Part shown: positions 2,227-46,862 of the stretch, piece after piece | Numbering within the stretch: the stretch's first letter is position 1 | Layout: each line of letters starts with the position of its first letter | Assembly: GCA_938003525.1 (NCBI GenBank) | Contig: CALKYM010000304.1 | Location: 29,287 to 93,286 of the forward strand | DNA from: an uncultured Planctomycetales bacterium | Lineage (GTDB): Bacteria; Planctomycetota; Planctomycetia; Pirellulales; JAEUIK01 | Length of the DNA: 64,000 nt | Direction: 5' to 3' | Notes under the pieces: model-generated | What the model saw: the letters and a program-made list of their open reading frames with translations, nothing else | Told to the model about the DNA's origin: nothing | The model's database searches: none | Position numbers and translations under genes: made by a program

Positions 2227-3807
2227 ATGCACACCGCGAAGCCGCGCCGGGATCTCAGCACGAGCCTCATACTCATTGCTGCGATGTGGGACCTGTGTAG
2301 CGCAGCACCGGTCGTGGCGGCCGACACGCGACCCAACATTCTGTTCATCTTCTGCGACGATCATGCTTCGCACGCGATCAGTGCGTATGGATCGCAGATC
2401 AACAGCACGCCCAACATCGATCGGCTGGCCAGCGAAGGGATGCTGTTTCGTAATTGTTTTTGCACCAATTCGATCTGTGCCCCCAGCCGCGCGGTCGTGC
2501 TCACCGGCAAGCACAGCCACCAGAACGGTGTGATCGATAATCGCGTCTCGTTCGACGGGACGCAACAACACGTGGGCAAGCTGTTGCAGGCTGCCGGCTA
2601 TCAAACGGCCATGATCGGCAAGTGGCATCTCAAGAGCGACCCGACGGGCTTCGACTACTGGCGCGTGCTGCCGGGGCAGGGGGCCTACTACAACCCGGTG
2701 ATGCGCACGGCAGCGGGCCGCGAACAGCACACCGGATACACGACCGACGTGATCACCGACATCGCCCTGGAGTGGCTGGCCGACGAGCGCGATCCCGAGA
2801 AGCCGTTTCTGCTGATGTACCAGCACAAGGCGCCGCATCGCGAATGGGCGCCGGGGCCCGATCACCTGGGGCTGTGGGAAGGCGAAGACCTTCCCGAGCC
2901 GGCGACGCTGTTCGACAACTATCAGAATCGAACCAGCGCGGCGCAGACACAGACGATGACCATCCGCGAGCATCTCAACCAGCGCGACTTGAAGTTCGTG
3001 CCGCCGCGCAATCTCACCGACGAGCAACTCTCCGCCTGGAACGCGGCTTACGGCCCTGCCAACGAGCGGTTCGAAAACGCCAACCTGGAAGGTCGCGACC
3101 TGATCCGCTGGAAGTATCAGCGGTACATCAAGGACTACTTACGTTGCATTGCCTCGGTCGACGACAACCTCGGTCGCGTGCTCGACTACCTCGACCGATC
3201 GGGCCTGAGGCAAAACACCGTGGTGATCTACAGCTCCGACCAGGGTTTCTATCTGGGCGACCACGGATGGTTCGACAAGCGTTGGATGTACGAAGAATCG
3301 CTGCGGATGCCGCTCATCGTCCGCTGGCCGGGAGTCGTCGCTCCCGGCAGCGAAGACGAGCACCTGGTGCAGAACCTCGACTTTGCGGAAACGTTTCTCG
3401 AGATCGCGGAAGCGGACGTGCCCGACGACATGCAGGGCGAGAGCCTGGTGCCGATCTTGCGCGGCGAAGAGCCCGACGATTGGCGGGATTCGATTTACTA
3501 CCAGTACTACGAGTGGCCTGGCGCCCACAGCGTGCAGCGCCATTACGGCGTGCGAACCGATCGCTTCAAGCTGATCTACTACTATCTGATCGACGAGTGG
3601 GAGCTGTTCGATCTGGAAAACGATCCGGATGAACTGAAGAGCGTCTATGACGATGCAGCGATGGCCGATGTGGTGACGAGATTGAAGCGCGAACTCGACC
3701 GGCTACGCCAACATTACGGAGCCGACGAGTTCCCCGAACCGCCCGTGCCGGAGCGCAATGCGTTGCAGAGTGGCTTCGAAGTGGCCCCAGATCTCGCTGG
3801 CGACTGA
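2227..3807 (+). CDS. Sulfatase (formylglycine-dependent, arylsulfatase/N-sulfoglucosamine-type)
   Basis: 526 aa with ATG start and a signal peptide. [11 protein letters not shown] metal-binding block. [13 protein letters not shown] carries the C-x-P-x-R formylglycine motif. GKWHL block is present. Confidence 0.9.
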
Positions 3808-8435: not shown

Positions 8436-10199
8436 ATGCGAGTCGCGACGTTGTTGTTGAGCCTGTTGGCATGCGTCATGGCGGCTGCGGCTGGTGCGGC
8501 CGAGCGTTTCGAAGTTGGGAGTGGGCTGCCGGACTTTTCGCTCCGCGACTATCGGGGCAAGGTGCACGATCAGGCGAGCTTCGACGAGGCGTCGCTGTTG
8601 GTCGTCGCCTTCTTGGGCAACGATTGTCCCCTGGCCCGGCTCTATGGCCCGCGACTGGCGGCACTGGCCGATGAGTACGCCGCGCAGGGCGTGCGGTTCG
8701 TGGGCGTGAACTCGAACGTCCAGGACACGCCAACGGAGATCGGCGCCTTCGCGCAGCGGTACGGCATCGATTTTCCGCTGTTGAAGGACGCCGGCAATGT
8801 GTTGGCCGATCAACTTTCCGCCCAGCGCGCGCCGGCGGTGCTCGTCTTCGATGCGGATCGAAAACTCCGCTACCGCGGACGCATCGACGATCAATACGGT
8901 GTCGGCTACCAACGTTCCGACGCCACGCGGAACGATTTGGCGACGGCCCTCGACGAGTTACTCGCCGGCCAAGACGTGAGCGTGGCCCAGACCGAAGCGC
9001 CGGGCTGCATCATCGGCCGCGTGCAGAAGATCGAGCCCCGCGGCGATGTGACCTTCAACCGCGACGTGGCGCCGATCCTCAACCGCCGCTGCGTCGAGTG
9101 CCACCGCGAAGGCGAGCTGGCGCCCTTCCCGTTGACCTCCTACGATGAAGTCGTGGGCTGGGGCGAGATGATCTGCGAAGTCGTTTCGCTGGGTCGCATG
9201 CCGCCTTGGTTTGCGAACCCCGAGCACGGCACGTTCTCCAACGATTGCAGCATGAGCGACAACGAGAAGCAGGTGCTGCACGACTGGGTAGCCGGCGGCT
9301 CACCCGAGGGCGAACCGGACGACTTGCCAGCGAGTCCCGAGTTCGTCACCGGCTGGAACATCGGTGAACCCGACGCGGTGTACACCATGCCCGAGCCGTT
9401 CGACGTGCCGGCCGAAGGCGTCATCGACTACCAATACTTTCTCATCGACCCGGGCTTCGAGGAAGACGTTTGGGTGAGCGCGGCCGAGGCGCGGCCCGAC
9501 AATACGGCCGTCGTGCATCACATCGTGTTGTTTGCCGCGCCGTCGAACTTCGACGTCGATCGGGCCGCCCAGAATGGCGGCCCTGCCGGCGGTCAGATGG
9601 TGGCCATCTACGCGCCGGGCATGCGTCCCTGGCAATATCCCGAAGGTACGGCGATGAAGATCCGCAAGGGCGCCAAGTTCGTCGTGCAGATGCACTACAC
9701 CTCCTGCGGCACTCCCCAAACCGACCAGAGCTACGTCGGGCTCAACTTCGTGGATGAATCCGAGGTGCGGAAGCGGATTCGCTACGGCATGGCGATCAAC
9801 TTTCAGTTCGAGATCCCCCCGGGCGCGGACAACCATATCGTGACGTCGAAGTCGACCATGCGCCGCGATACGACACTGCTGCAGTTGTTCCCGCACATGC
9901 ACTATCGTGGCAAGGCGTTCCGCTTCGAGGCGCACTATCCCGACGGAACACAGGAGGTTCTGCTCGACGTGCCGCACTACGACTTCAATTGGCAATTGCG
10001 GTACGACCTGGCCGAACCCAAGCATCTGCCCCGCGGCACCGAGTTGCACTGCACGGCCGTGTACGACAATTCGGAAGAAAATCTCGTCAATCCCGATCCG
10101 GACGAGACGGTCCGCTTTGGTCTGCAGTCTTTCGAAGAGATGATGGTCGGCTACTACACCTCCGTGCGGACCTACGAAGATCTCACGCAGGATGAGTAG
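8436..10199 (+). CDS. Secreted three-domain redox protein: redoxin (AhpC/TSA-like) + heme-c (CxxCH) domain + PHM/DBH-like copper type II monooxygenase core
   Basis: GAGGAG lies upstream of ATG 8436, with signal peptide MRVATLLLSLLACVMAAAAGAA. Redoxin block: LLVVAFLGNDCPLARLY..VRFVGVNSN. Heme-c domain: FNRDVAPILNRRCVECHRE (nt 9090-9104) ..GRMPPW. Cu-ligand-like set: VVHHIVLF (9516-9521), QMHY (9693-9695), HMHYRG (9894-9902), EEMM (10140-10145). Confidence 0.85.
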   Translation: MRVATLLLSLLACVMAAAAGAAERFEVGSGLPDFSLRDYRGKVHDQASFDEASLLVVAFLGNDCPLARLYGPRLAALADEYAAQGVRFVGVNSNVQDTPTEIGAFAQRYGIDFPLLKDAGNVLADQLSAQRAPAVLVFDADRKLRYRGRIDDQYGVGYQRSDATRNDLATALDELLAGQDVSVAQTEAPGCIIGRVQKIEPRGDVTFNRDVAPILNRRCVECHREGELAPFPLTSYDEVVGWGEMICEVVSLGRMPPWFANPEHGTFSNDCSMSDNEKQVLHDWVAGGSPEGEPDDLPASPEFVTGWNIGEPDAVYTMPEPFDVPAEGVIDYQYFLIDPGFEEDVWVSAAEARPDNTAVVHHIVLFAAPSNFDVDRAAQNGGPAGGQMVAIYAPGMRPWQYPEGTAMKIRKGAKFVVQMHYTSCGTPQTDQSYVGLNFVDESEVRKRIRYGMAINFQFEIPPGADNHIVTSKSTMRRDTTLLQLFPHMHYRGKAFRFEAHYPDGTQEVLLDVPHYDFNWQLRYDLAEPKHLPRGTELHCTAVYDNSEENLVNPDPDETVRFGLQSFEEMMVGYYTSVRTYEDLTQDE

Positions 10200-23359: not shown

Positions 23360-25441
<2,082 letters not shown>

Positions 25442-25931
25442 GGTCAGAATCCGGGTAGGGGAAGCAGTTCCGCCGCAGCGCGCATCGATGAGCCTGATGG
25501 CATACCACCCCACACGGGGGATGCCGTCGACTGGCATCGATACTCTCGGGAGCGGGGTCGCCAGAAGCGGTTCGACCCCGGCAGCTATCCCGACGCTCCA
25601 TCCTCGGGCGACTGCGCGGCGGGCTCATCCGTCGATCGTCCGAACAATCCTAATCCATTTCGACGTTACGACTAGGCCAAATTCACTTGTGCTCGGGCGA
25701 ATGCGGGATGGCCGCGCGGAGCAGTGCATGCATCGTCGTTGGCCGCGGCCTCGCCAGCGGCTCCCGATGTGCCCCCGAATCGTTGACTCATGTGCCTACC
25801 CTATCTAGCCTTATGCGACTCCCGGGTAGGCCCTGCAGCCGATGTTCATGGGCCACCTTGGAAGAGCCGCGAGAGACGGTTGCCCCAGTGTGCGGTAACC
25901 GAGAACTAACGAATCGCAAGCGGGGTGATCG

Positions 25932-29411: not shown

Positions 29412-29558
29412 CGCGCACGACCCATCCGCTAACGTGCTGGCAGAATACGTCGCCAGCAAACTCGATTCACGACGGCACATTAAGACTGCACCGGCGCCGC
29501 CATCTTAGCCCTTCGCGGAACAGCTCAAAAGATCGAAAGGGCGTGCCGCATCTAGGCG

Positions 29559-30014
29559 TTAAGAGCCTCCGTGCAGATGACAAGTGCCGTAATCGCAGCT
29601 CTCGGCCGTGCTACCAAAGCGGTAGCGTCGCCGGGCAATTTGGCGATAGCACCAACGCCAGAAGGGCATGGCGCCGGGAAGGTGCATCAGGGGGGCCAGC
29701 CACCACAGCCGGGGAAGGCGTCGGGAGAGATAGCGAATCGCCTCCGCACCACGATGGCGGCGGCCCTGCCGATCGACGACGTACATCGCTTCCATCAATC
29801 GCTCGTGGCTCAGGTCGGGATAGCGCTGGGCCACCGCTGGATCGTGCAAGGACAGGTATGCCAGCCGCCCTCCACGATCCCAGGCAGCCAGCCGCTGGAC
29901 TTGCGCGGTGCAGATGCTGCACTTCCCGTCGTAGATCACGACGTCCGCGTCGCCGCGCACATCAGGACCCGGCAGATCGCGTTGTTCGGCTTGGCGGACT
30001 GAAGCGGTCGTCAT
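29559..30014 (-). CDS. DCC-family (DUF393) thiol-disulfide oxidoreductase
   Basis: VVIYDGKCSICTAQVQRLAAWDRGGRLAYLSLHD. This is the characteristic DG-x-C-x-x-C motif and length (151 aa). Confidence 0.8.
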   Translation of the reverse strand: MTTASVRQAEQRDLPGPDVRGDADVVIYDGKCSICTAQVQRLAAWDRGGRLAYLSLHDPAVAQRYPDLSHERLMEAMYVVDRQGRRHRGAEAIRYLSRRLPRLWWLAPLMHLPGAMPFWRWCYRQIARRRYRFGSTAESCDYGTCHLHGGS

Positions 30015-30247
30015 CGGACTCGTCGTTCCCGGCTCAGGGTCTCAACCGGCTGCGTGTGCCCACCCATTCAACCGCAACTGCTGCCGCCCGGACAATCGGA
30101 ATCGCTGGACGAAACTCGGGCGCAGCGGCCGAGCCGCATGGTTTCGCAGAGATTCCCGTTGTGCCGCTGTCGCTCAGCGGCGAAACTTCACTGCCGCGGC
30201 GGGGTTATAACCCAGTGACGGCGGGTCGCTTGAATAGGAGAAATGCC

Positions 30248-30910
30248 ATGCAGCGAAAGCCGACGATCCTCGGACTGGCGGCGGCCATCATGCTCCTATT
30301 CGTACTCTCTTCATCGGCCGAAGCACAGGAGCGGTCGAAACGAGGTCGCCGCGGGCGGATACCGCAGCGCGCCCCGGATCGAATCGATGAGGGTGACCGC
30401 GCCCCCGACTTCAAGTTGCAGACTCTCGACGGCGAGCAGGAAGTTCAACTGAGTTCCGCCCGCGGCGAACGACCCGTGGCGCTGATCTTTGGCTCGTACA
30501 CGTGACCGCCCTTTCGGCACCAGGTGGGTGCCCTGGAAAAGCTGTACGCCGATTTCGGCGACCGTGTGCAGTTCCTGGTGGTTTACATTCGCGAAGCGCA
30601 TCCAACGGATGGGTGGCAGGTTGGCGCCAACGAGCGCGAGGGCGTACTCTTCGAGCAGCCCACCACGCTTGATGAGCGGGTCGACGTGGCGCACGCAATG
30701 TGCGAGCAGCTCGAACTCTCGATTCCGACCGTGATCGACGGCATCGATGATCGGGCGGGCACCGACTATAACGCCTGGCCCGATCGACTCTACCTGGTCG
30801 GCACCGATGGGCGGATCGCCTACAAGGGCCGTCCCGGCCCGTTCGGATTCAAGCCGGCCGAGTTGCGCACGGCCATCGAGCGGGAATTATCGACGGCCGC
30901 CGGCGAATAG
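30248..30910 (+). CDS. Iodothyronine-deiodinase-family thioredoxin-fold selenoprotein (TGA 30503-30505 read as Sec), exported
   Basis: AGGAG at 30235-30239 precedes ATG 30248. Signal peptide MQRKPTILGLAAAIMLLFVLSSSAEAQ. APDFKLQTLDGEQEVQLSS..RPVALIFGSYT-[TGA]-PPFRHQVGALEKLYADFGDRVQFLVVYIREAHPTDGW...DRLYLVGTDGRIAYKGRPGPFGF. Track ORFs 29543..30505 and 30524..30910 are in the same frame (coordinate mod 3 = 2) and are separated only by this TGA. Confidence 0.8.
30511..30541 (+). promoter_or_regulatory. Putative bacterial SECIS element
   Basis: Perfect hairpin GGCACC-AGGUG-GGUGCC at 30516..30532. It begins 11 nt after the UGA, and its loop begins 16 nt after. A possible lower stem pairs CUUU (30511-14) with AAAG (30538-41). 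Confidence 0.6.
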
Positions 30911-39829: not shown

Positions 39830-41794
39830 TCACAGATAAACGCGACGATTGTAGATATACCACTCGACCAGCGCGACGCCCAGGGCCGCCAACAACAGGT
39901 ACCACCAGATCTCGCGGCGCGCGACTTGCGGCGCAGCTTGCCCGGCAACGTCGATAAAGCCGATCTTTAATTTGGGATCTTCCGCTAGCCGGATGGCGCT
40001 CTCGTCGGCGTCGAACAAGTTGACCGCAAAGCTTCCCATACTTATGTCGTCCGCCATGATCTCGTAAACGCCCAATTGATCGGTGGCCGCGAAGTTGAAC
40101 GCGCCGAGGTTGCCGCGGCTGACGCGCACTTCGTCACCACCCGGATCGCGAACGCGAATCTCTTCCCCAGCACCCGACAATCGCAAGGCCAGCGACTGGC
40201 CCGGTCGCACGAAACCTTGTTCGAGCGCGTCCTCGCTATGCCCCAAATAGTCGAGCACATTGAGCACGAAGACGGGAAAGCTCAACCGCAGCGGCCAGTT
40301 CGTGTAGACCTGCTCCGCGTCGACCAGGGGAAACGCGATCACGGCATCCTCGAATCCTTCCCGCGGCGCGATGGCCACCAGCGGGCCCGCCTGCGATTCG
40401 ACGAGCACTTGACCGCCCGACGGCACTTCCAGGGGGCGAGCTTCCACGATGTCGACGTCGCCCAACGCGATGAGATTCATGAGCGGGTGCGCGCTGTTCG
40501 TATCAATGATCACCGGCACGTCAGCACTTTCGAGTTGCTGCCACTGGCCGCCGACAGGCGTCGTGCCGATGAACAGCGTGTTGGCCCGCGGCATCGTTTC
40601 GGGACGACAGCGATCGAAGATCACGAGATCGTATGCGTCGGAATTGGCAATCGCCTGATAGCGCTCGCCCGCGAGAAACGGCGGCGGTTCGAGCGTGACC
40701 TCCGCGCGTTCGTTCGCGCGGCCCGTAGTGAGCGCGTATTCGAGCGGATCGTTGCCGGGTGTGACCAACAGCACGCGCGCCGGCTGCGGTGGATTGACGG
40801 CGACCCAGGCACGATCGTCGGCGACAAGATCGTCCCTCGAGTCGGCTCGCAATTCGAGCACGCCGGTTTCCATCTCGGTCAACGGAAAGACGATTCCATC
40901 CGATTCCCCGGGTTCAATTGTCATTCGGCTGGCATCGATCAGTTCTCCGTCGAGCCTTAATTCGACGCTGGCCTCGGCCGTTTCGAGTCCGTGGTTATGC
41001 AGCCGGGCGAAGACCTCGATCTCACTGGCGCGACGCTCCGGCCGCCGCACGCTGAAGGCGCTGATGGCGACGTTCTTCGCCGCGGCGCTGCCGGTGGTGA
41101 TGAATGTCGGCTCGAGATTGCCCAGTGAGAAACCTTCGACGGCGGGCAGATGGCCGTCGCTGAAGATAAACATCTCGGCTGGCAGCGCGTCGGCCACCTG
41201 CACGTCGCCGGCGTCCGTTGAAGTGCGGCCGGGATTCGCCAGGCCGGCGGCCAGCAGGAGAGCCTCGCGCAGGTTGGTGGGGCGCGACGTGGGACGAATC
41301 GCAGCAACTCGATTGAGTAGCTCATTGCGGTTGGTCGTGAACTGCTGCTCGACGCGAGCAGTGTTCGAAAAGCTGACGATCATCGCAGCGGCACCGGGAC
41401 GCATCTGTTCGATGAGCTGTGCCGCGGTCTGTTTCGACCACTCCAGACGGGAAGGCTCGAGATCGGCGGCCGACATGCTGGCGGAATTGTCGATCAGGAA
41501 AACGTAGCGCTCGCCGCGCAACTCGTGACTGAGCCAGGTGGGGTTCCACGCTGCCAACAGCGCCAGCGCCGCAATGAGCAACTGCAAGAACAACAGCAGA
41601 CTTTGCCGCAGCCGTTGCCAGAGGCTGTTGACGTGCAGATCTTCGATGGCTTTGTGCCAGAGGTACGTGCTCGGCACCTCCAGCGGCTGCCGTTTCAACT
41701 TCAGGAAATAGAGCGCCAGGATGGCGGGCGGGATCAACGCCAGTGCGGCGAGTTGCGGCCCAGTCAATGCCGAGCGGAAGGCGAATTCGTTCAT
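39830..41794 (-). CDS. BatA-type VWA-domain membrane protein (N-terminal double-TM domain + von Willebrand factor A)
   Basis: ATG 41794 overlaps the upstream stop (ATGA at 41791-41794). N-terminal double-TM signature: MNEFAFRSALTGPQLAALALIPPAILALYFLKLKRQPLEVPSTYLW. MIDAS motif YVFLIDNSASMS (DxSxS). C-terminal TM helix WWYLLLAALGVALVEWYIY. Confidence 0.85.
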   Translation of the reverse strand: MNEFAFRSALTGPQLAALALIPPAILALYFLKLKRQPLEVPSTYLWHKAIEDLHVNSLWQRLRQSLLLFLQLLIAALALLAAWNPTWLSHELRGERYVFLIDNSASMSAADLEPSRLEWSKQTAAQLIEQMRPGAAAMIVSFSNTARVEQQFTTNRNELLNRVAAIRPTSRPTNLREALLLAAGLANPGRTSTDAGDVQVADALPAEMFIFSDGHLPAVEGFSLGNLEPTFITTGSAAAKNVAISAFSVRRPERRASEIEVFARLHNHGLETAEASVELRLDGELIDASRMTIEPGESDGIVFPLTEMETGVLELRADSRDDLVADDRAWVAVNPPQPARVLLVTPGNDPLEYALTTGRANERAEVTLEPPPFLAGERYQAIANSDAYDLVIFDRCRPETMPRANTLFIGTTPVGGQWQQLESADVPVIIDTNSAHPLMNLIALGDVDIVEARPLEVPSGGQVLVESQAGPLVAIAPREGFEDAVIAFPLVDAEQVYTNWPLRLSFPVFVLNVLDYLGHSEDALEQGFVRPGQSLALRLSGAGEEIRVRDPGGDEVRVSRGNLGAFNFAATDQLGVYEIMADDISMGSFAVNLFDADESAIRLAEDPKLKIGFIDVAGQAAPQVARREIWWYLLLAALGVALVEWYIYNRRVYL

Positions 41795-42684
41795 CGCACC
41801 AATCCCCGCTGACGCAGATAGCTGAGGATCAGTTGATCGACGGGCGTTTGATTGTTGGCGACGAGATGAACCATGCCGCGAGCATGACAAAACTCGCGAA
41901 CCGACGCCAGAAACGCCGCCAGTGTCTGCTTGTACTTCTTCAACAGCGGCGCGCTGATGGTCACTTCCGCCACGTCCTGGTCTTCACAATCGACCAGCCG
42001 CAGGTCGCCCGCCAACTCGGGATCGAACTCCTCTTGCGCGAGCACCTGTACGACATAGACATCCATGCGACGGGCCAGCAGGTAACGTAGCGCTTCTTCG
42101 TAGCCGCCACGGTCGAGCAAGTCGCTAACCAGCACGACGATGCCTTGACCGGGATTGCGGAGGCAAAACTGCTTGACCGACGCGGCGAGCGGCTGCGCCT
42201 CGCCAGCCTCGAAAGAGTTCAGGTAGTCGAGCATCCGCCACAGGCTGGAACGGCCACGCAACATGGGAGCGGAAGGCGGCTTGTCAGGCCCGAGCGGCTC
42301 GATGCGAACGCGGTCTGCGCGAATCAGCCCGACGAAGCCCAGCGCGGCGGCCAGTTGACGCGCGAAGTGCAGCTTCGTCGGCTCACCAAACTCCATTGAC
42401 CGGCTGGTGTCGACCAGGCAGTAGAAATGCAGATCTTCCTCTTCCAGAAACAGCTTGAGGAACAGCCGGTCGAGCCGCGCGTAGGTGTTCCAGTCGATGA
42501 ACCGCAGATCGTCGCCGACAACGTAGTTGCGAAAATCGGCGAACTCGACGCTCTGGCCCTTGCGCTTGCTGCGCCGTTCGCCCTTGAACTTGCCGCGAAA
42601 GATCTTCCGCGAGACGAACTCCAACCGCTCGAGCCGCGCCAACAGCTCGGGACTCAGCAGCGGTTCTTCGGTCGTCTGGGACAT
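41791..42684 (-). CDS. DUF58 (VWA-like, MoxR-associated) protein
   Basis: SVEFADFRNYVVGDDLRFIDWNTYARLDRLFLKLFLEEEDLHFYCLVDTSRSM is the canonical DUF58 core. Confidence 0.9.
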   Translation of the reverse strand: MSQTTEEPLLSPELLARLERLEFVSRKIFRGKFKGERRSKRKGQSVEFADFRNYVVGDDLRFIDWNTYARLDRLFLKLFLEEEDLHFYCLVDTSRSMEFGEPTKLHFARQLAAALGFVGLIRADRVRIEPLGPDKPPSAPMLRGRSSLWRMLDYLNSFEAGEAQPLAASVKQFCLRNPGQGIVVLVSDLLDRGGYEEALRYLLARRMDVYVVQVLAQEEFDPELAGDLRLVDCEDQDVAEVTISAPLLKKYKQTLAAFLASVREFCHARGMVHLVANNQTPVDQLILSYLRQRGLVR

Positions 42685-42737
42685 GCGTGGACTCGGCTTC
42701 GTGACGTGTGACGGGTTACTCCGGCGGGCGATGCCCG

Positions 42738-43811
42738 TCAGGCGGCCTGCTCGTTGCGGGGCTGCTCGGGCACTTTTTCCAGAATCTGCAACAGCACGCG
42801 GTCGGCTTCGACGCCTTCAGCCTGGGCCTCGAAGTTCAACAGCACGCGATGCCGCATGGCCGGCAGATAGACCCGACGGATGTCTTCGTAACTGACGTTG
42901 TAGCGCCCTTCGAGCAGCGCGCGGACTTTGGCGGCCAGCGCGAGCGTTTGGGCTCCGCGAGGACTCGAACCCCAGCGGATGTACTGGTTCGTCTCCTCCA
43001 CGGCGAACTCCCCCTCCGGATGCGTGGCGAGCACCAACCGCACCAAATAGTCCTGCACGTGTTGCGCCAAGATCACTTCGCGCACCAATGCCTGCCACTG
43101 GCGGATTTCCTCGCCATCCATCACCCGCTCCGGTTCGATATGCTCGCTGCGGGTTGTGCGATCGACGATCGTGGTCAGCTCCTCCCGCGTCGAGTAGCCG
43201 ACCAGCAGCTTGAACATGAATCGGTCGAGCTGCGCCTCGGGCAGCGGATACGTTCCTTCTTGTTCAATGGGGTTCTGGGTGGCCATGACGAAGAACGGCT
43301 GATCAAGTTCGTACATGTGCCCGCCGACGGTCACCGATCCTTCTTGCATGGTTTCCAGCATGGCGGATTGAGTCTTGGGCGTGGCGCGGTTGATTTCGTC
43401 GGCCAGGCAAATCTGGGTGAAGATCGGCCCGCGCTGGAATTCGAACACCCGGCGCCCGTCGGGCGTTTCCATCACCATGTTGGTGCCGAGAATGTCGGCC
43501 GGCATCAAGTCAGGCGTGAATTGGATGCGCGAGAAGTTGAGGTTGAGCGCTTTGGCCAAGGTGCGGACGAGCAACGTCTTGCCCAATCCCGGCACACCTT
43601 CCAGCAGGCAATGCCCGCCGACGAACAAGCACGTCAGCACGCCGTGTACGATGTCGTCGTGGCCCACGATCACGCGGGCAATCTGTGTCCGCACGGCTTC
43701 ATAGCGCTCGGCGAACTGCTTGGCCCGCTCTTCCATCGTTGTTGCCAGGCTCATAGTCGATTCACTCCGGGGATTTAGCGGGGCTTGGTTCCGCGACTCG
43801 ATGGTCGGCAT
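42738..43811 (-). CDS. MoxR-family AAA+ ATPase
   Basis: Walker A: LLEGVPGLGKTLLVRTLA. Walker B/sensor region: ICLADEINRATPKTQSAMLETMQE. ATG 43811 follows the upstream TAG stop (43815-43817) by 3 nt. An alternative ATG lies at 43757. Confidence 0.95.
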   Translation of the reverse strand: MPTIESRNQAPLNPRSESTMSLATTMEERAKQFAERYEAVRTQIARVIVGHDDIVHGVLTCLFVGGHCLLEGVPGLGKTLLVRTLAKALNLNFSRIQFTPDLMPADILGTNMVMETPDGRRVFEFQRGPIFTQICLADEINRATPKTQSAMLETMQEGSVTVGGHMYELDQPFFVMATQNPIEQEGTYPLPEAQLDRFMFKLLVGYSTREELTTIVDRTTRSEHIEPERVMDGEEIRQWQALVREVILAQHVQDYLVRLVLATHPEGEFAVEETNQYIRWGSSPRGAQTLALAAKVRALLEGRYNVSYEDIRRVYLPAMRHRVLLNFEAQAEGVEADRVLLQILEKVPEQPRNEQAA

Positions 43812-43814
43812 CAA

Positions 43815-46800
43815 CTATTGGCGATCCTTCCAGACGCGCTCTTTGGCTTTCAATAAGCGACTGGTATAGCTCTCTTCTTCCGCTTGCGGACCCGAGACTC
43901 CGCCTGCTTTGGGCGCCGCGCGTGGCTGTTCGGACCGTGACGATTCGGGCTTGATTTCATCGAGCGGCGCATCGGCCGGATCGATATCGGGCGACGGCTC
44001 GAAGCGGGCAGCGGTCCGCTGCTGTTCGATGCGTTGGCCCACTTCGGCCTTGCTGCTGCGGAGGCGATCGAGGTACTCAGTCTTCGGTGCCTCACCTTCT
44101 CTGCGCAATACGAAGTCCCGCGCCCGCGCTGCCGCGACTGGGACCCAGGCGAAGTTGGCATTCACGCGGCGGAAGAACACATCAGCAAAGAACAGACACC
44201 CGCCCAACAGCACGAGATAGTGCCAGGCCGGCGAGCGATGTTTGGGGATGGCGAGTGTCTCACGAAAGACGTTGGTCGCCAGCCAGTCCTCTAGTGAGCT
44301 CGCTTCGCTGGTGCCGATGGCGACGCCGGGCTCTCCATCCTGCGGCGTGAGTTCCGCCAGCGTCTTCAGCAGTGCATCGTTTGTCGTGCGGTCGCGAAAC
44401 TCGGCCGAGTAGGCCACGTTGACGCCAGCCCGCAACGGCGCCTGACCCACCCCGGGACTGAGCGTGACGAAGTAGTTGCCGGCACCTTCGGCAGGAAAGG
44501 CACCCACGTACCGCCCCGGCGCGATTTGTTCGAGTTCCAGCGCGTCGGTCGACATATCCGGGCCGATCACGGCGCCGTTGATCGAGAGGAAGTTGATGAA
44601 CTCATCCTCGGGATCGAGTGCCGTGACGATCACGCGCACCTGTCCGTCTTCCTGTTCGATGGCCATCGTGTAGTTGCCCTGCTCGGCGATGGGGCGCATC
44701 GACCACCGCGTCATCTGGCTGAAGAGCTGATCAAACGATTCCCAGTCTTCCGGAGCCCAATTCGTCGTCCAACGCTGCCCGGCGTCGGTCGTCCAGCACA
44801 CGGCGCGTCCGGCTCCATAGGTCCACGCCGCCAGCAGCGTGTTGTTGGCAGCGTCAGGTGAAACGGGCGCCAGCATGGCCACCTCGACCAGCGGGCTGTC
44901 CTTGACCGTCGTCATCACGAATCCCGTCAAGGGGGGAAGCGGCTCTTCGATGCCACTGAGGATCTCGTGCGGATAGTGGATCTGCGCGCCGAACCCTTCT
45001 TCTTTCTCGTACACCAGGGGTCTCGCCACACGACGCGCTTCGCGCTGAAAGATGCGCGGGAGCGCGGCATTGTTCGTCACACGGTAGTATTTGCCGCCCG
45101 TGTCGTCGGCGATTTTCTGCAGCAGGTTGTTGCCTGCTGGGCCATGTGCCGCAACCGCGACCGTGGTCACGGTCACGTTCTCCGCCACGAGCCCGTTCAT
45201 GACCCGAACCGATGGGGCCGAAGGATCACCATCGCTGATCACGATCATGTGACGAATGGCGGCGTCGCGCAGCGTCTTGAAGCCCTGCAGCGCCAGGTCC
45301 AACCCCGGATCGAAGTCGGGCATGTCGCCGGGCGTCATGCGATCCAACAGGGCCAGCATCCGCTGGCGGTGCGGACCCACCGGCAGCATGCCGTTGGCGC
45401 GCTGATCGCGCCACAGCCAGTCTGCCCCCGTGACGCCCGCACCGCTGTAGTGCACCAGCCCGCAATAGTCTTGCGGCCCCAGGGTCTTGAGGGCCTCGTA
45501 GGCGATCTTCTTCTGCCAGAAGTTGCCCTCGGGAATCTCCGAGGCGTGCATCAACAGCGCCAGTGCGCCTTTGGGCAGGACCTTGGGATTGCGAATTTGG
45601 AAATCGAGCGGCATCGCCTTTTCGAGTTCGGTATTGGCCCAACCGCCCGCGCCGTAGCTGTTGGGCCCGCCGAGCATGATCAGCCCGGCTCCCATTTGCT
45701 CGGTGTTGCGGACAAGCATCTCGATCAGGTCGTCGGATTCGAACCGCTCGCGCGGCACGTTCGCCAGGATGACCGTGTCGTAGGGTTGCAGCTCGGCGAG
45801 ATTCGCGAAGAGTTGGTTGGTTGGCCGAACGGTGACCTCGAGATCCTGCGATCGCAGCCGCTCGACCAGCAGATCGTATTGGCCCCGCTCCAGGTGATCT
45901 TCGATCAACAACACCTGGGCCGAGCCGCGAATGTAAGTGAAATTCGTGGCCTTGTTGTTCTGCGACATGCCGTCATCGCGGCGATCATCGGGTATGAAGC
46001 GCGCCTCGAACGTGTAGAAGTTGGGCTGTTCGAGTTCCTGCCGCAGCGTAAAGACGTGTTTGCCCGGCCCGATCGTGACCCGCTGTTCGCTGAGCGTGAG
46101 CGGTTGACCTTCGGTGGTTTGCGAGACGCGGAGCACGCCGCTCACTTCGCCCGAGTCTTCCGCCGTGGCCTCGGCCGAATTGTTCAGCACCACGCGCATA
46201 TCGAACGGCTGTCCCTGCCGAACGTCCGAGGGGATGGCCAGCTTCTCCACGCTGACCTCGGCCCGGGCGTGATAGTAGATCGGCACCACGTCGATGCCGA
46301 TGCCCGACTCGGCGGCCGCCCGCGCTTGTTCCAACGCATCGCCCAGGTTCTCGTTGCCATCGCTGACGATGACGATGCGTTTGGAACTGTCCTCCGGCAA
46401 CGATGCCTGGGCCAGTTTGATGGCGGCAGCGAGGTTCGTGTGTTCGGGATCGAGCACGCTTTCGACGAGCTGCGGTAGCTCGACGTCTTCGTCGAAGGGC
46501 GGGATCTCAATCGCCGCCTCGCGGCCGTAGACGATGACGCCCGCCTTGTCTTCATCTCGACGATGCTGGCGAATGGCCTCGTTGGTGTACTCGACCATCG
46601 CCTTGCGCTGCTGCTCCGGGATGCTGCGCGACTGGTCGAGCACGAACACGACCGCCATGCGATCGCTGGTTTGCACGAGTTGAATCTCGGCCAGAGCCAA
46701 CACCAGACAGACGATCACCAGAGTGCGGATCGCGATTACCCAGGCGCTGCGCAGCCGCCCCAGCCCCGCCATGCTCTTGCGGCCGAACCACCACACCCAG

Positions 46801-46862
46801 GGCAACAGCAACAGCAGTAGCAGCCACCAGGGGTGTTCGCAGGTGAAATCGAGCTGCCACAT
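43815..46862 (-). CDS. Large VWA-domain membrane protein (BatA-type N-terminal double-TM domain, VWA, extended C-terminal region)
   Basis: MWQLDFTCEHPWWLLLLLLLPWVWWFGRK..WVIAIRTLVIVCLVLALAEI is the double-TM domain. MIDAS motif VVFVLDQSRSI. VIVSDGNEN block. Late TM helix WHYLVLLGGCLFFADVFF. 1015 aa. Confidence 0.85.
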   Translation of the reverse strand: MWQLDFTCEHPWWLLLLLLLPWVWWFGRKSMAGLGRLRSAWVIAIRTLVIVCLVLALAEIQLVQTSDRMAVVFVLDQSRSIPEQQRKAMVEYTNEAIRQHRRDEDKAGVIVYGREAAIEIPPFDEDVELPQLVESVLDPEHTNLAAAIKLAQASLPEDSSKRIVIVSDGNENLGDALEQARAAAESGIGIDVVPIYYHARAEVSVEKLAIPSDVRQGQPFDMRVVLNNSAEATAEDSGEVSGVLRVSQTTEGQPLTLSEQRVTIGPGKHVFTLRQELEQPNFYTFEARFIPDDRRDDGMSQNNKATNFTYIRGSAQVLLIEDHLERGQYDLLVERLRSQDLEVTVRPTNQLFANLAELQPYDTVILANVPRERFESDDLIEMLVRNTEQMGAGLIMLGGPNSYGAGGWANTELEKAMPLDFQIRNPKVLPKGALALLMHASEIPEGNFWQKKIAYEALKTLGPQDYCGLVHYSGAGVTGADWLWRDQRANGMLPVGPHRQRMLALLDRMTPGDMPDFDPGLDLALQGFKTLRDAAIRHMIVISDGDPSAPSVRVMNGLVAENVTVTTVAVAAHGPAGNNLLQKIADDTGGKYYRVTNNAALPRIFQREARRVARPLVYEKEEGFGAQIHYPHEILSGIEEPLPPLTGFVMTTVKDSPLVEVAMLAPVSPDAANNTLLAAWTYGAGRAVCWTTDAGQRWTTNWAPEDWESFDQLFSQMTRWSMRPIAEQGNYTMAIEQEDGQVRVIVTALDPEDEFINFLSINGAVIGPDMSTDALELEQIAPGRYVGAFPAEGAGNYFVTLSPGVGQAPLRAGVNVAYSAEFRDRTTNDALLKTLAELTPQDGEPGVAIGTSEASSLEDWLATNVFRETLAIPKHRSPAWHYLVLLGGCLFFADVFFRRVNANFAWVPVAAARARDFVLRREGEAPKTEYLDRLRSSKAEVGQRIEQQRTAARFEPSPDIDPADAPLDEIKPESSRSEQPRAAPKAGGVSGPQAEEESYTSRLLKAKERVWKDRQ

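Follow-up and report, generated by a model that had tools for sequence, protein, structure and literature searches.

A single question is raised by one locus in a 64,000-nucleotide stretch of contig CALKYM010000304.1, from an uncultured Planctomycetales bacterium (the window, by which we mean the whole of the stretch that was analysed): does the TGA codon that interrupts the frame from 30248 to 30910 end a gene, or is it read as selenocysteine (Sec)? We favor the second answer. Our reading, to which we give a probability of roughly 85%, is that one gene occupies the locus and encodes an exported deiodinase-like selenoprotein, that its TGA is recoded through a selenocysteine insertion sequence (SECIS) element, and that its product would act as a reductase.

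The translation of 30248-30910 runs MQRK...RPVALIFGSYT*PPFRHQVGALEKLY...YIREAHPTDGW...DRLYLVGTDGRIAYKGRPGPFGF...AAGE*; that is, the frame from the ATG at 30248 opens MQRKPTILGLAAAIMLLFVLSSSAEAQE...RPVALIFGSYT and, past the TGA, continues as PPFRHQVGALEKLYADFGDRVQFLVVYIREAHPTDGW...DRLYLVGTDGRIAYKGRPGPFGF...AAGE up to a TAG. A preliminary description, made from the sequence alone, had proposed that the TGA unites two same-frame entries in the list of open reading frames (ORFs), 29543..30505 and 30524..30910, and the frame is indeed open from end to end save for the TGA at 30503-30505. The 5' two thirds of the first of these ORFs are noncoding, and a DCC1-like gene on the opposite strand (29559..30014) overlaps it. 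The start suggested at that time, ATG 30248 with AGGAG upstream, is also the start of an 85-residue product in public assemblies (protein P0121). The expectation that gene callers would fragment the gene was borne out as well, the second public product being a protein of 128 residues (P0001) that begins at GTG 30524 and comprises the 3' 128 codons. On our reading the public annotation of the locus is wrong, giving two fragments for one gene. Products of exactly 85 and 128 residues are equally what gene callers would give if the TGA were a true stop, the locus then being a pseudogene or a gene for an 85-residue stub with a decaying frame downstream.

Evidence on the nature of the gene comes from the domain that the TGA interrupts. 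With the read-through protein as query (Cys set at the TGA), Pfam family PF00837 (T4_deiodinase) was matched as one domain over both halves with 132.1 bits and an E-value of 2.6e-38, against a gathering threshold of 27; residues 40-212 correspond to profile positions 67-235 of 237. That both halves should fall on one profile had been set beforehand as a condition, and they occupy adjacent segments of it: the N-terminal 85 residues alone match positions 67-113, and the C-terminal 134 residues alone match positions 115-235 (E 2.8e-26), so the TGA is position 114. An intact downstream half of 134 codons with such a match argues against a true stop. Among solved structures the best matches are mouse Dio3 (4tr3, E 4e-27) and Dio2 (9h48, E 9e-24), in contiguous alignments that place the TGA at Sec170 of mouse Dio3, a column that is Cys in both crystallised chains; the structures that come next belong to generic thioredoxin-fold proteins, with E-values no better than 1.5e-5. 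The assignment to the deiodinase family that had been made from motifs is thus upheld by profile and structure matches, all three blocks being present (FGS-x-T-Sec-PPF, YI-x-EAHP-x-DGW and the C-terminal RLY...G.I.Y.G..GP.G[YF]), and the TGA does stand in the Sec column, where homologues carry Cys.

Other profiles were matched less well. The top NCBIfam model, NF038285 (deiodinase_rel, a hypothetical equivalog), gave 225.8 bits; the match is confined to positions 179-340 of the 347 in the model, and for that reason the score stays under the curated cut-off of 250; the window protein is without the N-terminal part of some 178 positions. AhpC/TSA (PF00578) at 40.2 bits (cut-off 26) and Redoxin (PF08534) at 35.4 bits both pass their Pfam thresholds, but both are far weaker than PF00837. 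The PF00578 match overlaps the deiodinase match, and we read it as showing relatedness at the level of the clan and not as a family assignment.

We then considered what relatives have at the catalytic column. One genome of each species was scanned (185,579 in all, the genome of the window not being among them), which gave at least 599 stretches confirmed as relatives, and in the best 80 of these the column is TGA without exception. These 80 comprise about 50 metagenome-assembled genomes (MAGs) of Acidobacteriota, 10 of Planctomycetota, 5 Actinomycetota, 5 'Deltaproteobacteria'/Thermodesulfobacteriota, 4 Chloroflexota, 2 Verrucomicrobia, 2 Armatimonadetes, 1 Poribacteria and 1 Binatia. Starting a metagenome scan from Cys forms still brought up nothing but TGA forms (80 of 80). 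Altogether, all 160 orthologous loci that were fetched, from about ten phyla, have TGA at this position; the downstream half is intact in each, and no frameshift or truncation at the TGA point was seen in any of them. The closest relatives among the matches listed are MAGs from Pirellulales (59% identity), Planctomycetota (62%) and Pirellulaceae (57%). Orthologues that simply stop or shift frame at this point, which had been named in advance as grounds for abandoning the selenoprotein, were therefore not found among those fetched, and a true stop shared by so many phyla with an intact frame behind it is hard to credit.

In the protein collection, 831 matches were found, and the column was scored among the best 120. 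Cys occupies it in 52 full-length proteins and Ser in one; an apparent Trp occupies it in 33, and a further 11 are fragments of 121-146 residues that start just past the column. An in-frame UGA at the catalytic column together with Cys homologues is what characterizes the bacterial family. The Sec form is evidently no marine curiosity, as it dominates all of the retrieved sets (160 of 160 loci) and many of its carriers are soil Acidobacteriota. Both forms can occur side by side: in a Planctomyces sp. MAG (L074, SXKJ01000021.1) a Sec form (FGSFT-U-GPY) at 3001-3486 has upstream of it, in tandem, a Cys paralogue at 1639-2127 that carries the motif FGCFSCGNY and shares 45% identity with the window protein.

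The 33 proteins with apparent Trp, all of them JGI gene calls (including P0003 and P0005-P0008), might suggest that the TGA is instead read as a standard amino acid, whether Trp, Gly or Cys, through near-cognate suppression or because the whole genome uses another code (table 4 or 25). In the one case that was checked, P0003 (L002, 816-1529), the codon behind the 'W' is TGA, and the deposited protein continues past the gene's real TGA stop as well; the 'W' arises from a short contig called with genetic code 4. The same origin is assumed for the other 32. Many relatives in the protein database would thus stand truncated, or with a false catalytic Trp from short contigs called with code 4. The window genome uses the standard code: the 37 long non-overlapping ORFs of the window end in TGA (14), TAG (13) and TAA (10), and the recoding at 30503-30505 is local because TGA ends 14 of them, so that this single TGA calls for a mechanism of its own. 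The homologous residue, moreover, is a Cys or Sec nucleophile, and an enzyme with Trp or Gly in its place would be inactive.

A second line of evidence is the hairpin reported earlier as lying directly after the UGA, which is present and falls within the minimum free energy (MFE) fold. Sixteen nucleotides (30506-30521) separate the UGA from its AGGUG loop. A definition of the bSECISearch type calls for an apical loop 16-37 nt from the UGA and for a small loop with a G, and the window hairpin agrees on both counts. We aligned 79 segments, ungapped, from -9 to +48 around the UGA. UGA-CC is invariant in all 79, with C as the base after the UGA. A UGA followed by C is generally considered a leaky stop context, a point in favor of a standard amino acid; simple leakiness, however, needs no conserved hairpin of SECIS type. 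With this and the evidence from the gene calls and the code, we consider a standard amino acid at the TGA scarcely credible.

In nearly all of the 79 sequences the stem falls on the same columns while its own sequence varies: GGCACC/GGUGCC in the window and L002, GGCGUCA/UGGCGCC in L003, GUGCCCA/UGGGCAC in L006, GGCGGGA/UCCCGCC in L013 and GGGACCA/UGGUUCC in L011. Of the loop bases, G30, the first, never varies, and G31 is found in at least 90%. In the stem, 83% of cells are paired, and both partners vary in six of the seven pairs; 49 sequences have GC and 28 have CG at pair 28:34, with none unpaired, and pair 27:35 is GC in 49, CG in 22, UG in 3 and unpaired in 3. The covariation score of 0.319 compares with 0.111 ± 0.011 for shuffled alignments (shuffles that ignore phylogeny), was equalled in none of 500 shuffles, and exceeds that of every slid control. 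RNAalifold, with no structure supplied, arrived at this stem too, with a single base bulged on the 3' side and compensatory changes at five of six pairs. These swaps recur across phyla and over differing peptides (RHQVGA, RRQAGA, RAQAGH, RREVPA), suggesting that the protein sequence is bent to preserve the RNA stem. Nearly all forms that keep the TGA keep the hairpin: among the fetched loci, 149 of 151 distinct TGA forms have one whose stem is 4 bp or longer and whose loop contains GG. Independent decay behind a true stop would keep none of these features, and we hold a true stop to be very improbable.

The lower helix is a different matter; across orthologues only 54% of its cells are paired. 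It is lineage-specific (the planctomycete-type CUGGAA), and its importance is uncertain.

Resemblance of the loop to that of the Escherichia coli fdhF SECIS, noted in the preliminary description, stood up to direct comparison with the MG1655 sequence. In both, the stem-loop lies within the coding sequence and starts 11-12 nt past the UGA, and the GGU of the loop is at 20-22 in the window and one nucleotide further, at 21-23, in fdhF (counting the U of UGA as 0). The window stem differs in that it lacks a bulged U and forms an unbroken helix of 6 bp under a loop of 5 nt. The hairpin of most orthologues differs from that of the window in turn: an A-U pair closes a GGU or GGC loop of 3 nt, and on the 3' side a single base is often bulged. 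A conserved hairpin of this kind just 3' of the UGA is the other mark of the Sec forms of the bacterial family, and we take it to be a bacterial SECIS, which by analogy with the E. coli system would bind SelB.

Full sets of Sec-insertion genes have been reported in several planctomycetes. No deiodinase-like entry was found in the supplements of the planctomycete selenoproteome paper. Two verrucomicrobial MAGs bring machinery and gene together: selA-selB lie at 16-2804 directly upstream of the TGA gene and on its strand in L030 (JACRQF010000014.1), and selB lies likewise at 407-2182 in L011 (JACRKA010000053.1). By tblastn against the E. coli proteins, SelA gave 2e-64 and SelB 8e-53 and 6e-50 in these loci. 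There the Sec machinery appears to be linked to the deiodinase-like gene rather than to formate dehydrogenase. For the window organism itself, we infer Sec decoding from the gene and its orthologues.

Bacterial deiodinase-like selenoproteins are not new. Zhang, Fomenko and Gladyshev (2005, Genome Biol 6:R37) described four Sec and six Cys forms among Sargasso Sea sequences, one of them shown with a bacterial SECIS; they did not expect thyroid hormone to be a substrate in bacteria and proposed some redox function other than the metabolism of that hormone. The Global Ocean Sampling (GOS) survey of 2008 counted 22 Sec and 21 Cys forms in a table without a motif; the mention of marine reports in the preliminary description was accurate. 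A 2021 study described EF-hand fusions, which are also among our protein-search matches. Two reviews of 2022 and 2026 (PMC9312934, PMC13188914) include the family, with functions largely unknown, and their tables give its motif as UxxC. The window protein and all 157 aligned Sec forms have instead U-P-P-F or U-G-P-Y/F, with no Cys at +3, so the tabulated motif may belong to another subgroup or be a slip.

As far as sequence can tell, the window gene belongs to this family by every testable criterion: a PF00837 domain, UGA at the catalytic column with Cys homologues, and directly downstream a SECIS with a small G-containing apical loop. Nothing essential differs; the N-terminus of the window copy is short, with a predicted cleavable signal peptide and neither membrane anchor nor EF-hands. 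It is an ordinary, mis-annotated member of a family known in bacteria since 2005 and does not represent a novel type of system. Its use lies in annotation and in adding a further example to the family; a specialist will not be surprised by it. The main question about the family is what its enzymes do, and for that the suggestion that a planctomycete copy makes a good experimental handle does not hold, as a gene on an uncultured metagenomic contig is no more tractable than many others.

The N-terminus bears on where the enzyme would work. Residues 1-26 have a positive n-region, a hydrophobic core of 14 residues and A-E-A before Gln27, with no twin-arginine motif, and by a hydropathy heuristic they look like the signal peptide that had been proposed from ATG 30248. 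The same type of N-terminus is found in the closest orthologues (L002, L003, L004, L005, L009, L011, L030), and a simple hydropathy rule gives a signal-peptide-like or transmembrane-like N-terminus in 114 of 151. Planctomycete and verrucomicrobial forms have the cleavable type with small residues before Q. The protein is probably exported to the periplasm by a Sec-type signal peptide. Acidobacterial Sec forms (L013, L021, L022, L024, L028, L031, L037, L041, L047 and others) are longer at the N-terminus, where a conserved AMRQPPExFGRVM motif comes after a membrane anchor. This layout recalls the N-terminal anchoring of animal deiodinases, and the anchored N-terminus may match the part of NF038285 that the window protein is without.

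Around the catalytic column, conservation was counted over the 157 aligned Sec forms. At least 95% of them share S83, T85, U86-P-P-F-R90, Y113, E116, A117, H118, N128, R144, D164, P178-D-R180, G197-P and G200-F. A Cys stands in column 151 in 138 of the 157; the window protein has M151-C152. Six residues have been proposed for the proton relay of deiodinases, which in Dio3 are Ser167, Thr169, Tyr197, Glu200, His202 and His219 (PMC11592359). Five of the six align with S83, T85, Y113, E116 and H118 of the window protein, and W123 aligns with Dio3 Trp207. The vertebrate enzymes Dio1-3 (4tr3/4tr4 for Dio3, 9h48 for Dio2) thus share with the window protein the thioredoxin fold with the Dio insertion, the three blocks, the Sec column and a Ser/Thr/Tyr/Glu/His relay. 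They differ from it in their SECIS, a kink-turn element of the 3' untranslated region where the window gene has a short hairpin within its ORF, and in being anchored to the membrane by the N-terminus, where the window protein has a predicted cleavable signal peptide.

Several results weigh against the overall reading, or against parts of it. In the 64-kb window there is no selA, selB, selD or tRNA-Sec, a point that also favors a true stop; ARAGORN found only a tRNA-Arg, and Pfam and NCBIfam scans of 35 window ORFs found no sel gene. The folding energy of the hairpin alone is unremarkable (z = -1.67 over 76 nt). No Rfam family matches the window at gathering thresholds, nor the region 30440-30640 at E up to 10. 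The control with Cys-form genes is small (n = 6): five are without a hairpin, with at most three of seven in-register pairs, and one (L166) keeps six of seven. The signal-peptide call comes from a crude hydropathy heuristic and not from SignalP. The neighboring genes are too little conserved to point to a substrate or reductant. Finally, the sixth relay residue (Dio3 His219, Dio2 His182) is Pro138 here, and Pro in 138 of the 157 Sec forms; the substrate clamp (Dio3 Arg275, Dio2 Lys241) is Pro196; and Dio3 Cys239 is Ile159, with another conserved Cys at 151/152. The combined evidence for the selenoprotein nevertheless lies far beyond chance, because the profile halves adjoin at the TGA, 160 of 160 loci have TGA, and the hairpin covaries; the energy of the hairpin by itself is not significant.

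Thyronine-type deiodinase activity should not be assumed for the window protein, because the third relay histidine, Arg275 and Cys239 are all missing. Our reading is that the machinery around the selenolate has been retained and the thyronine-specific parts have not. The window protein would be neither an iodothyronine deiodinase in the enzymatic sense nor, by its score, a member of NF038285.

What, then, might it catalyze? It could be a true reductive dehalogenase, an extracytoplasmic bacterial counterpart of the deiodinases that removes iodine or bromine from natural halogenated phenolics through a Se-halogen bond. The protein is nearer to Dio3 and Dio2 than to other solved thioredoxin-fold proteins (E 4e-27 against 1.5e-5 for the family that comes next), has the Dio-specific EAHPxDGW stretch and the loop that follows without large gaps, keeps most of the relay together with Trp123, and belongs with close relatives that have kept Sec very strongly. 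The two prolines in place of the clamp arginine and the third relay histidine speak against such an activity, as do neighboring genes that give no sign of aromatic or halogen metabolism and the expectation of the family's describers (Zhang, Fomenko and Gladyshev 2005) of another, more general redox role. We regard it as unlikely. Rather less probable again is a more specific proposal, in which the exported Sec enzyme, together with the very large Sec-retaining clade around it, is a corrinoid-independent, selenium-dependent reductive dehalogenase acting outside the cytoplasm on natural iodinated or brominated aromatics. If that were true, it would be a bacterial counterpart and evolutionary source of the animal deiodinases and would represent a previously unrecognised route in halogen cycling.

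Alternatively, the enzyme may be a peroxiredoxin (Prx)-like peroxidase or a thiol:disulfide oxidoreductase of the cell envelope, its deiodinase features reflecting shared ancestry. The AhpC/TSA and Redoxin matches fit this, although they are far weaker than the deiodinase match. The Prx, Redoxin and TlpA/ResA proteins have the same fold, belong to the same clan and carry their nucleophile at the N-terminus of helix 1, and ResA and TlpA are exported, as is predicted for the window protein; the window protein differs from all of them in having a single Sec in place of CxxC, and the Dio-specific insertion. The arrangement S-x-x-U with the invariant Arg180 in the DRLYL strand resembles the Prx pattern of S/T-x-x-C with an Arg. 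AhpD/CMD-like genes, some of them for CxxU selenoproteins, adjoin orthologues in 11 loci, which would suit a peroxidase; that is only about 7% of loci, however, in mixed orientations, with none in the window, and the AhpD-like protein is without a signal peptide, so that its compartment may differ. We hold this role tentatively, as a real possibility, and overall a peroxide or general redox role seems somewhat likelier than dehalogenation.

For the selenoprotein that we favor, a mechanism can be proposed. As in E. coli, the hairpin with its GGU loop would recruit SelB and Sec-tRNA(Sec) while the UGA at 30503-30505 is in the A site, and selenocysteine would be inserted there. In the resulting thioredoxin-fold reductase, Prx-like or deiodinase-like, the Sec86 selenolate might be activated by the network of Ser83, Thr85, Tyr113, Glu116 and His118 together with Arg180, and would attack the substrate at an electrophilic atom, which could be the oxygen of a peroxide or a halogen bound to an aromatic ring. 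The selenenic acid or selenenyl halide so formed could be resolved by Cys151/152 to give a selenenylsulfide, which an extracytoplasmic thiol relay would then reduce.

Coordinates of the proposed deiodinase-like selenoprotein gene, its parts, and other genes of the window
Feature	Position	Strand	Remarks
Whole gene	30248..30910	+	One 220-codon frame; only interruption the TGA at 30503-30505; TAG stop 30908-30910
Shine-Dalgarno-like AGGAG	30236..30240	+	7 nt 5' of ATG 30248; read from sequence
ATG and predicted cleavable signal peptide	30248..30325	+	Residues 1-26, MQRKPTILGLAAAIMLLFVLSSSAEA, then QE; hydropathy heuristic
N-terminal 85 codons	30248..30502	+	Signal peptide and start of thioredoxin-fold domain, ending FGSYT
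In-frame TGA, residue 86, read as selenocysteine (proposed)	30503..30505	+	From Pfam position, Dio3 alignment and orthologues
Last 134 codons and TAG	30506..30910	+	YIREAHPTDGW, Cys152, R180, GPFGF block; matches PF00837 alone
Putative SECIS upper stem-loop, GGCACC / AGGUG / GGUGCC	30516..30532	+	Begins 11 nt past TGA; in MFE fold
Pieces of the hairpin	30516-30521, 30522-30526, 30527-30532	+	GGCACC, AGGUG loop, GGUGCC
Extended putative SECIS with lower helix	30512..30538	+	UUUC 30512-30515 with GGAA 30535-30538; in window MFE fold
DCC1-like thiol-disulfide oxidoreductase	29559-30014	-	PF04134, 86 bits; divergent, 233 bp from selenoprotein start
587-residue ORF	8436-10199	+	N-terminal AhpC/TSA-Redoxin domain (residues 27-153), long unannotated C-terminal part; about 20 kb away
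BatA/VWA/MoxR-like cluster	39830-46862	-	BatA-VWA 39830-41890; AAA chelatase-like 42738-43814; 1015-aa VWA and GATase1-like 43815-46862
Arylsulfatase	2227-3807		26 kb from selenoprotein gene

Two further hairpins were noticed. A second perfect one in the window, CGCCG-AUUU-CGGCG (30547-30560, + strand), lies in the coding sequence 42 nt past the TGA; similar ones occur in a few orthologues (L006, L010, L019) and not generally. In the Cys form L166 (ERZ25039518 contig_1705), near the TGC codon, the near-intact hairpin in SECIS register, with its six of seven pairs, is GGCGCGAGGCUCCCGCC, which fits, perhaps, a recent replacement of Sec by Cys.

We also looked through the window for other genes with an in-frame TGA, by requiring high G+C at third codon positions on both sides of it. 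All 16 candidates look like ordinary gene ends or spurious frames; the screen is crude, the deiodinase-like gene itself falling narrowly under its cut-off. With E. coli SelA, SelB and SelD as queries, tblastn gave only matches in the window that were rejected: the best to SelB is the GTPase domain of EF-G (23360-25537), and a weak match to SelD is spurious, lying in the MoxR/chelatase-like AAA gene (42738-43814).

The immediate neighbors of the gene in the window, for the DCC1-like oxidoreductase, a fumarase and a 545-residue coiled-coil protein, were not found beside orthologues, and the pairing with the DCC1-like gene is seen at none of the other loci. Elsewhere the only recurrent neighbors are AhpD/CMD-like, TonB-type and sulfatase genes, each at no more than 12 loci. 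Sulfatase genes flank several planctomycete and verrucomicrobial forms, both Sec and Cys (L003 3594-6305, L033 3-1850, L165, L167); their proximity may merely reflect the abundance of sulfatases in these phyla. The loci with an adjoining AhpD/CMD-like gene are L036, L073, L013, L017, L020, L022, L078, L121, L139, L153 and L166. The AhpD-like protein is a possible redox partner, with the reservation that the compartments may not match. In L036 (2226-2822, TGA at 2478) and L073 (2012-2797, TGA at 2438) the AhpD-like gene has its own in-frame TGA, in a C-P-F-U motif of which CKFC and CYFC are Cys versions, and its own downstream hairpin, so that in these two loci two apparent selenoprotein genes stand side by side.

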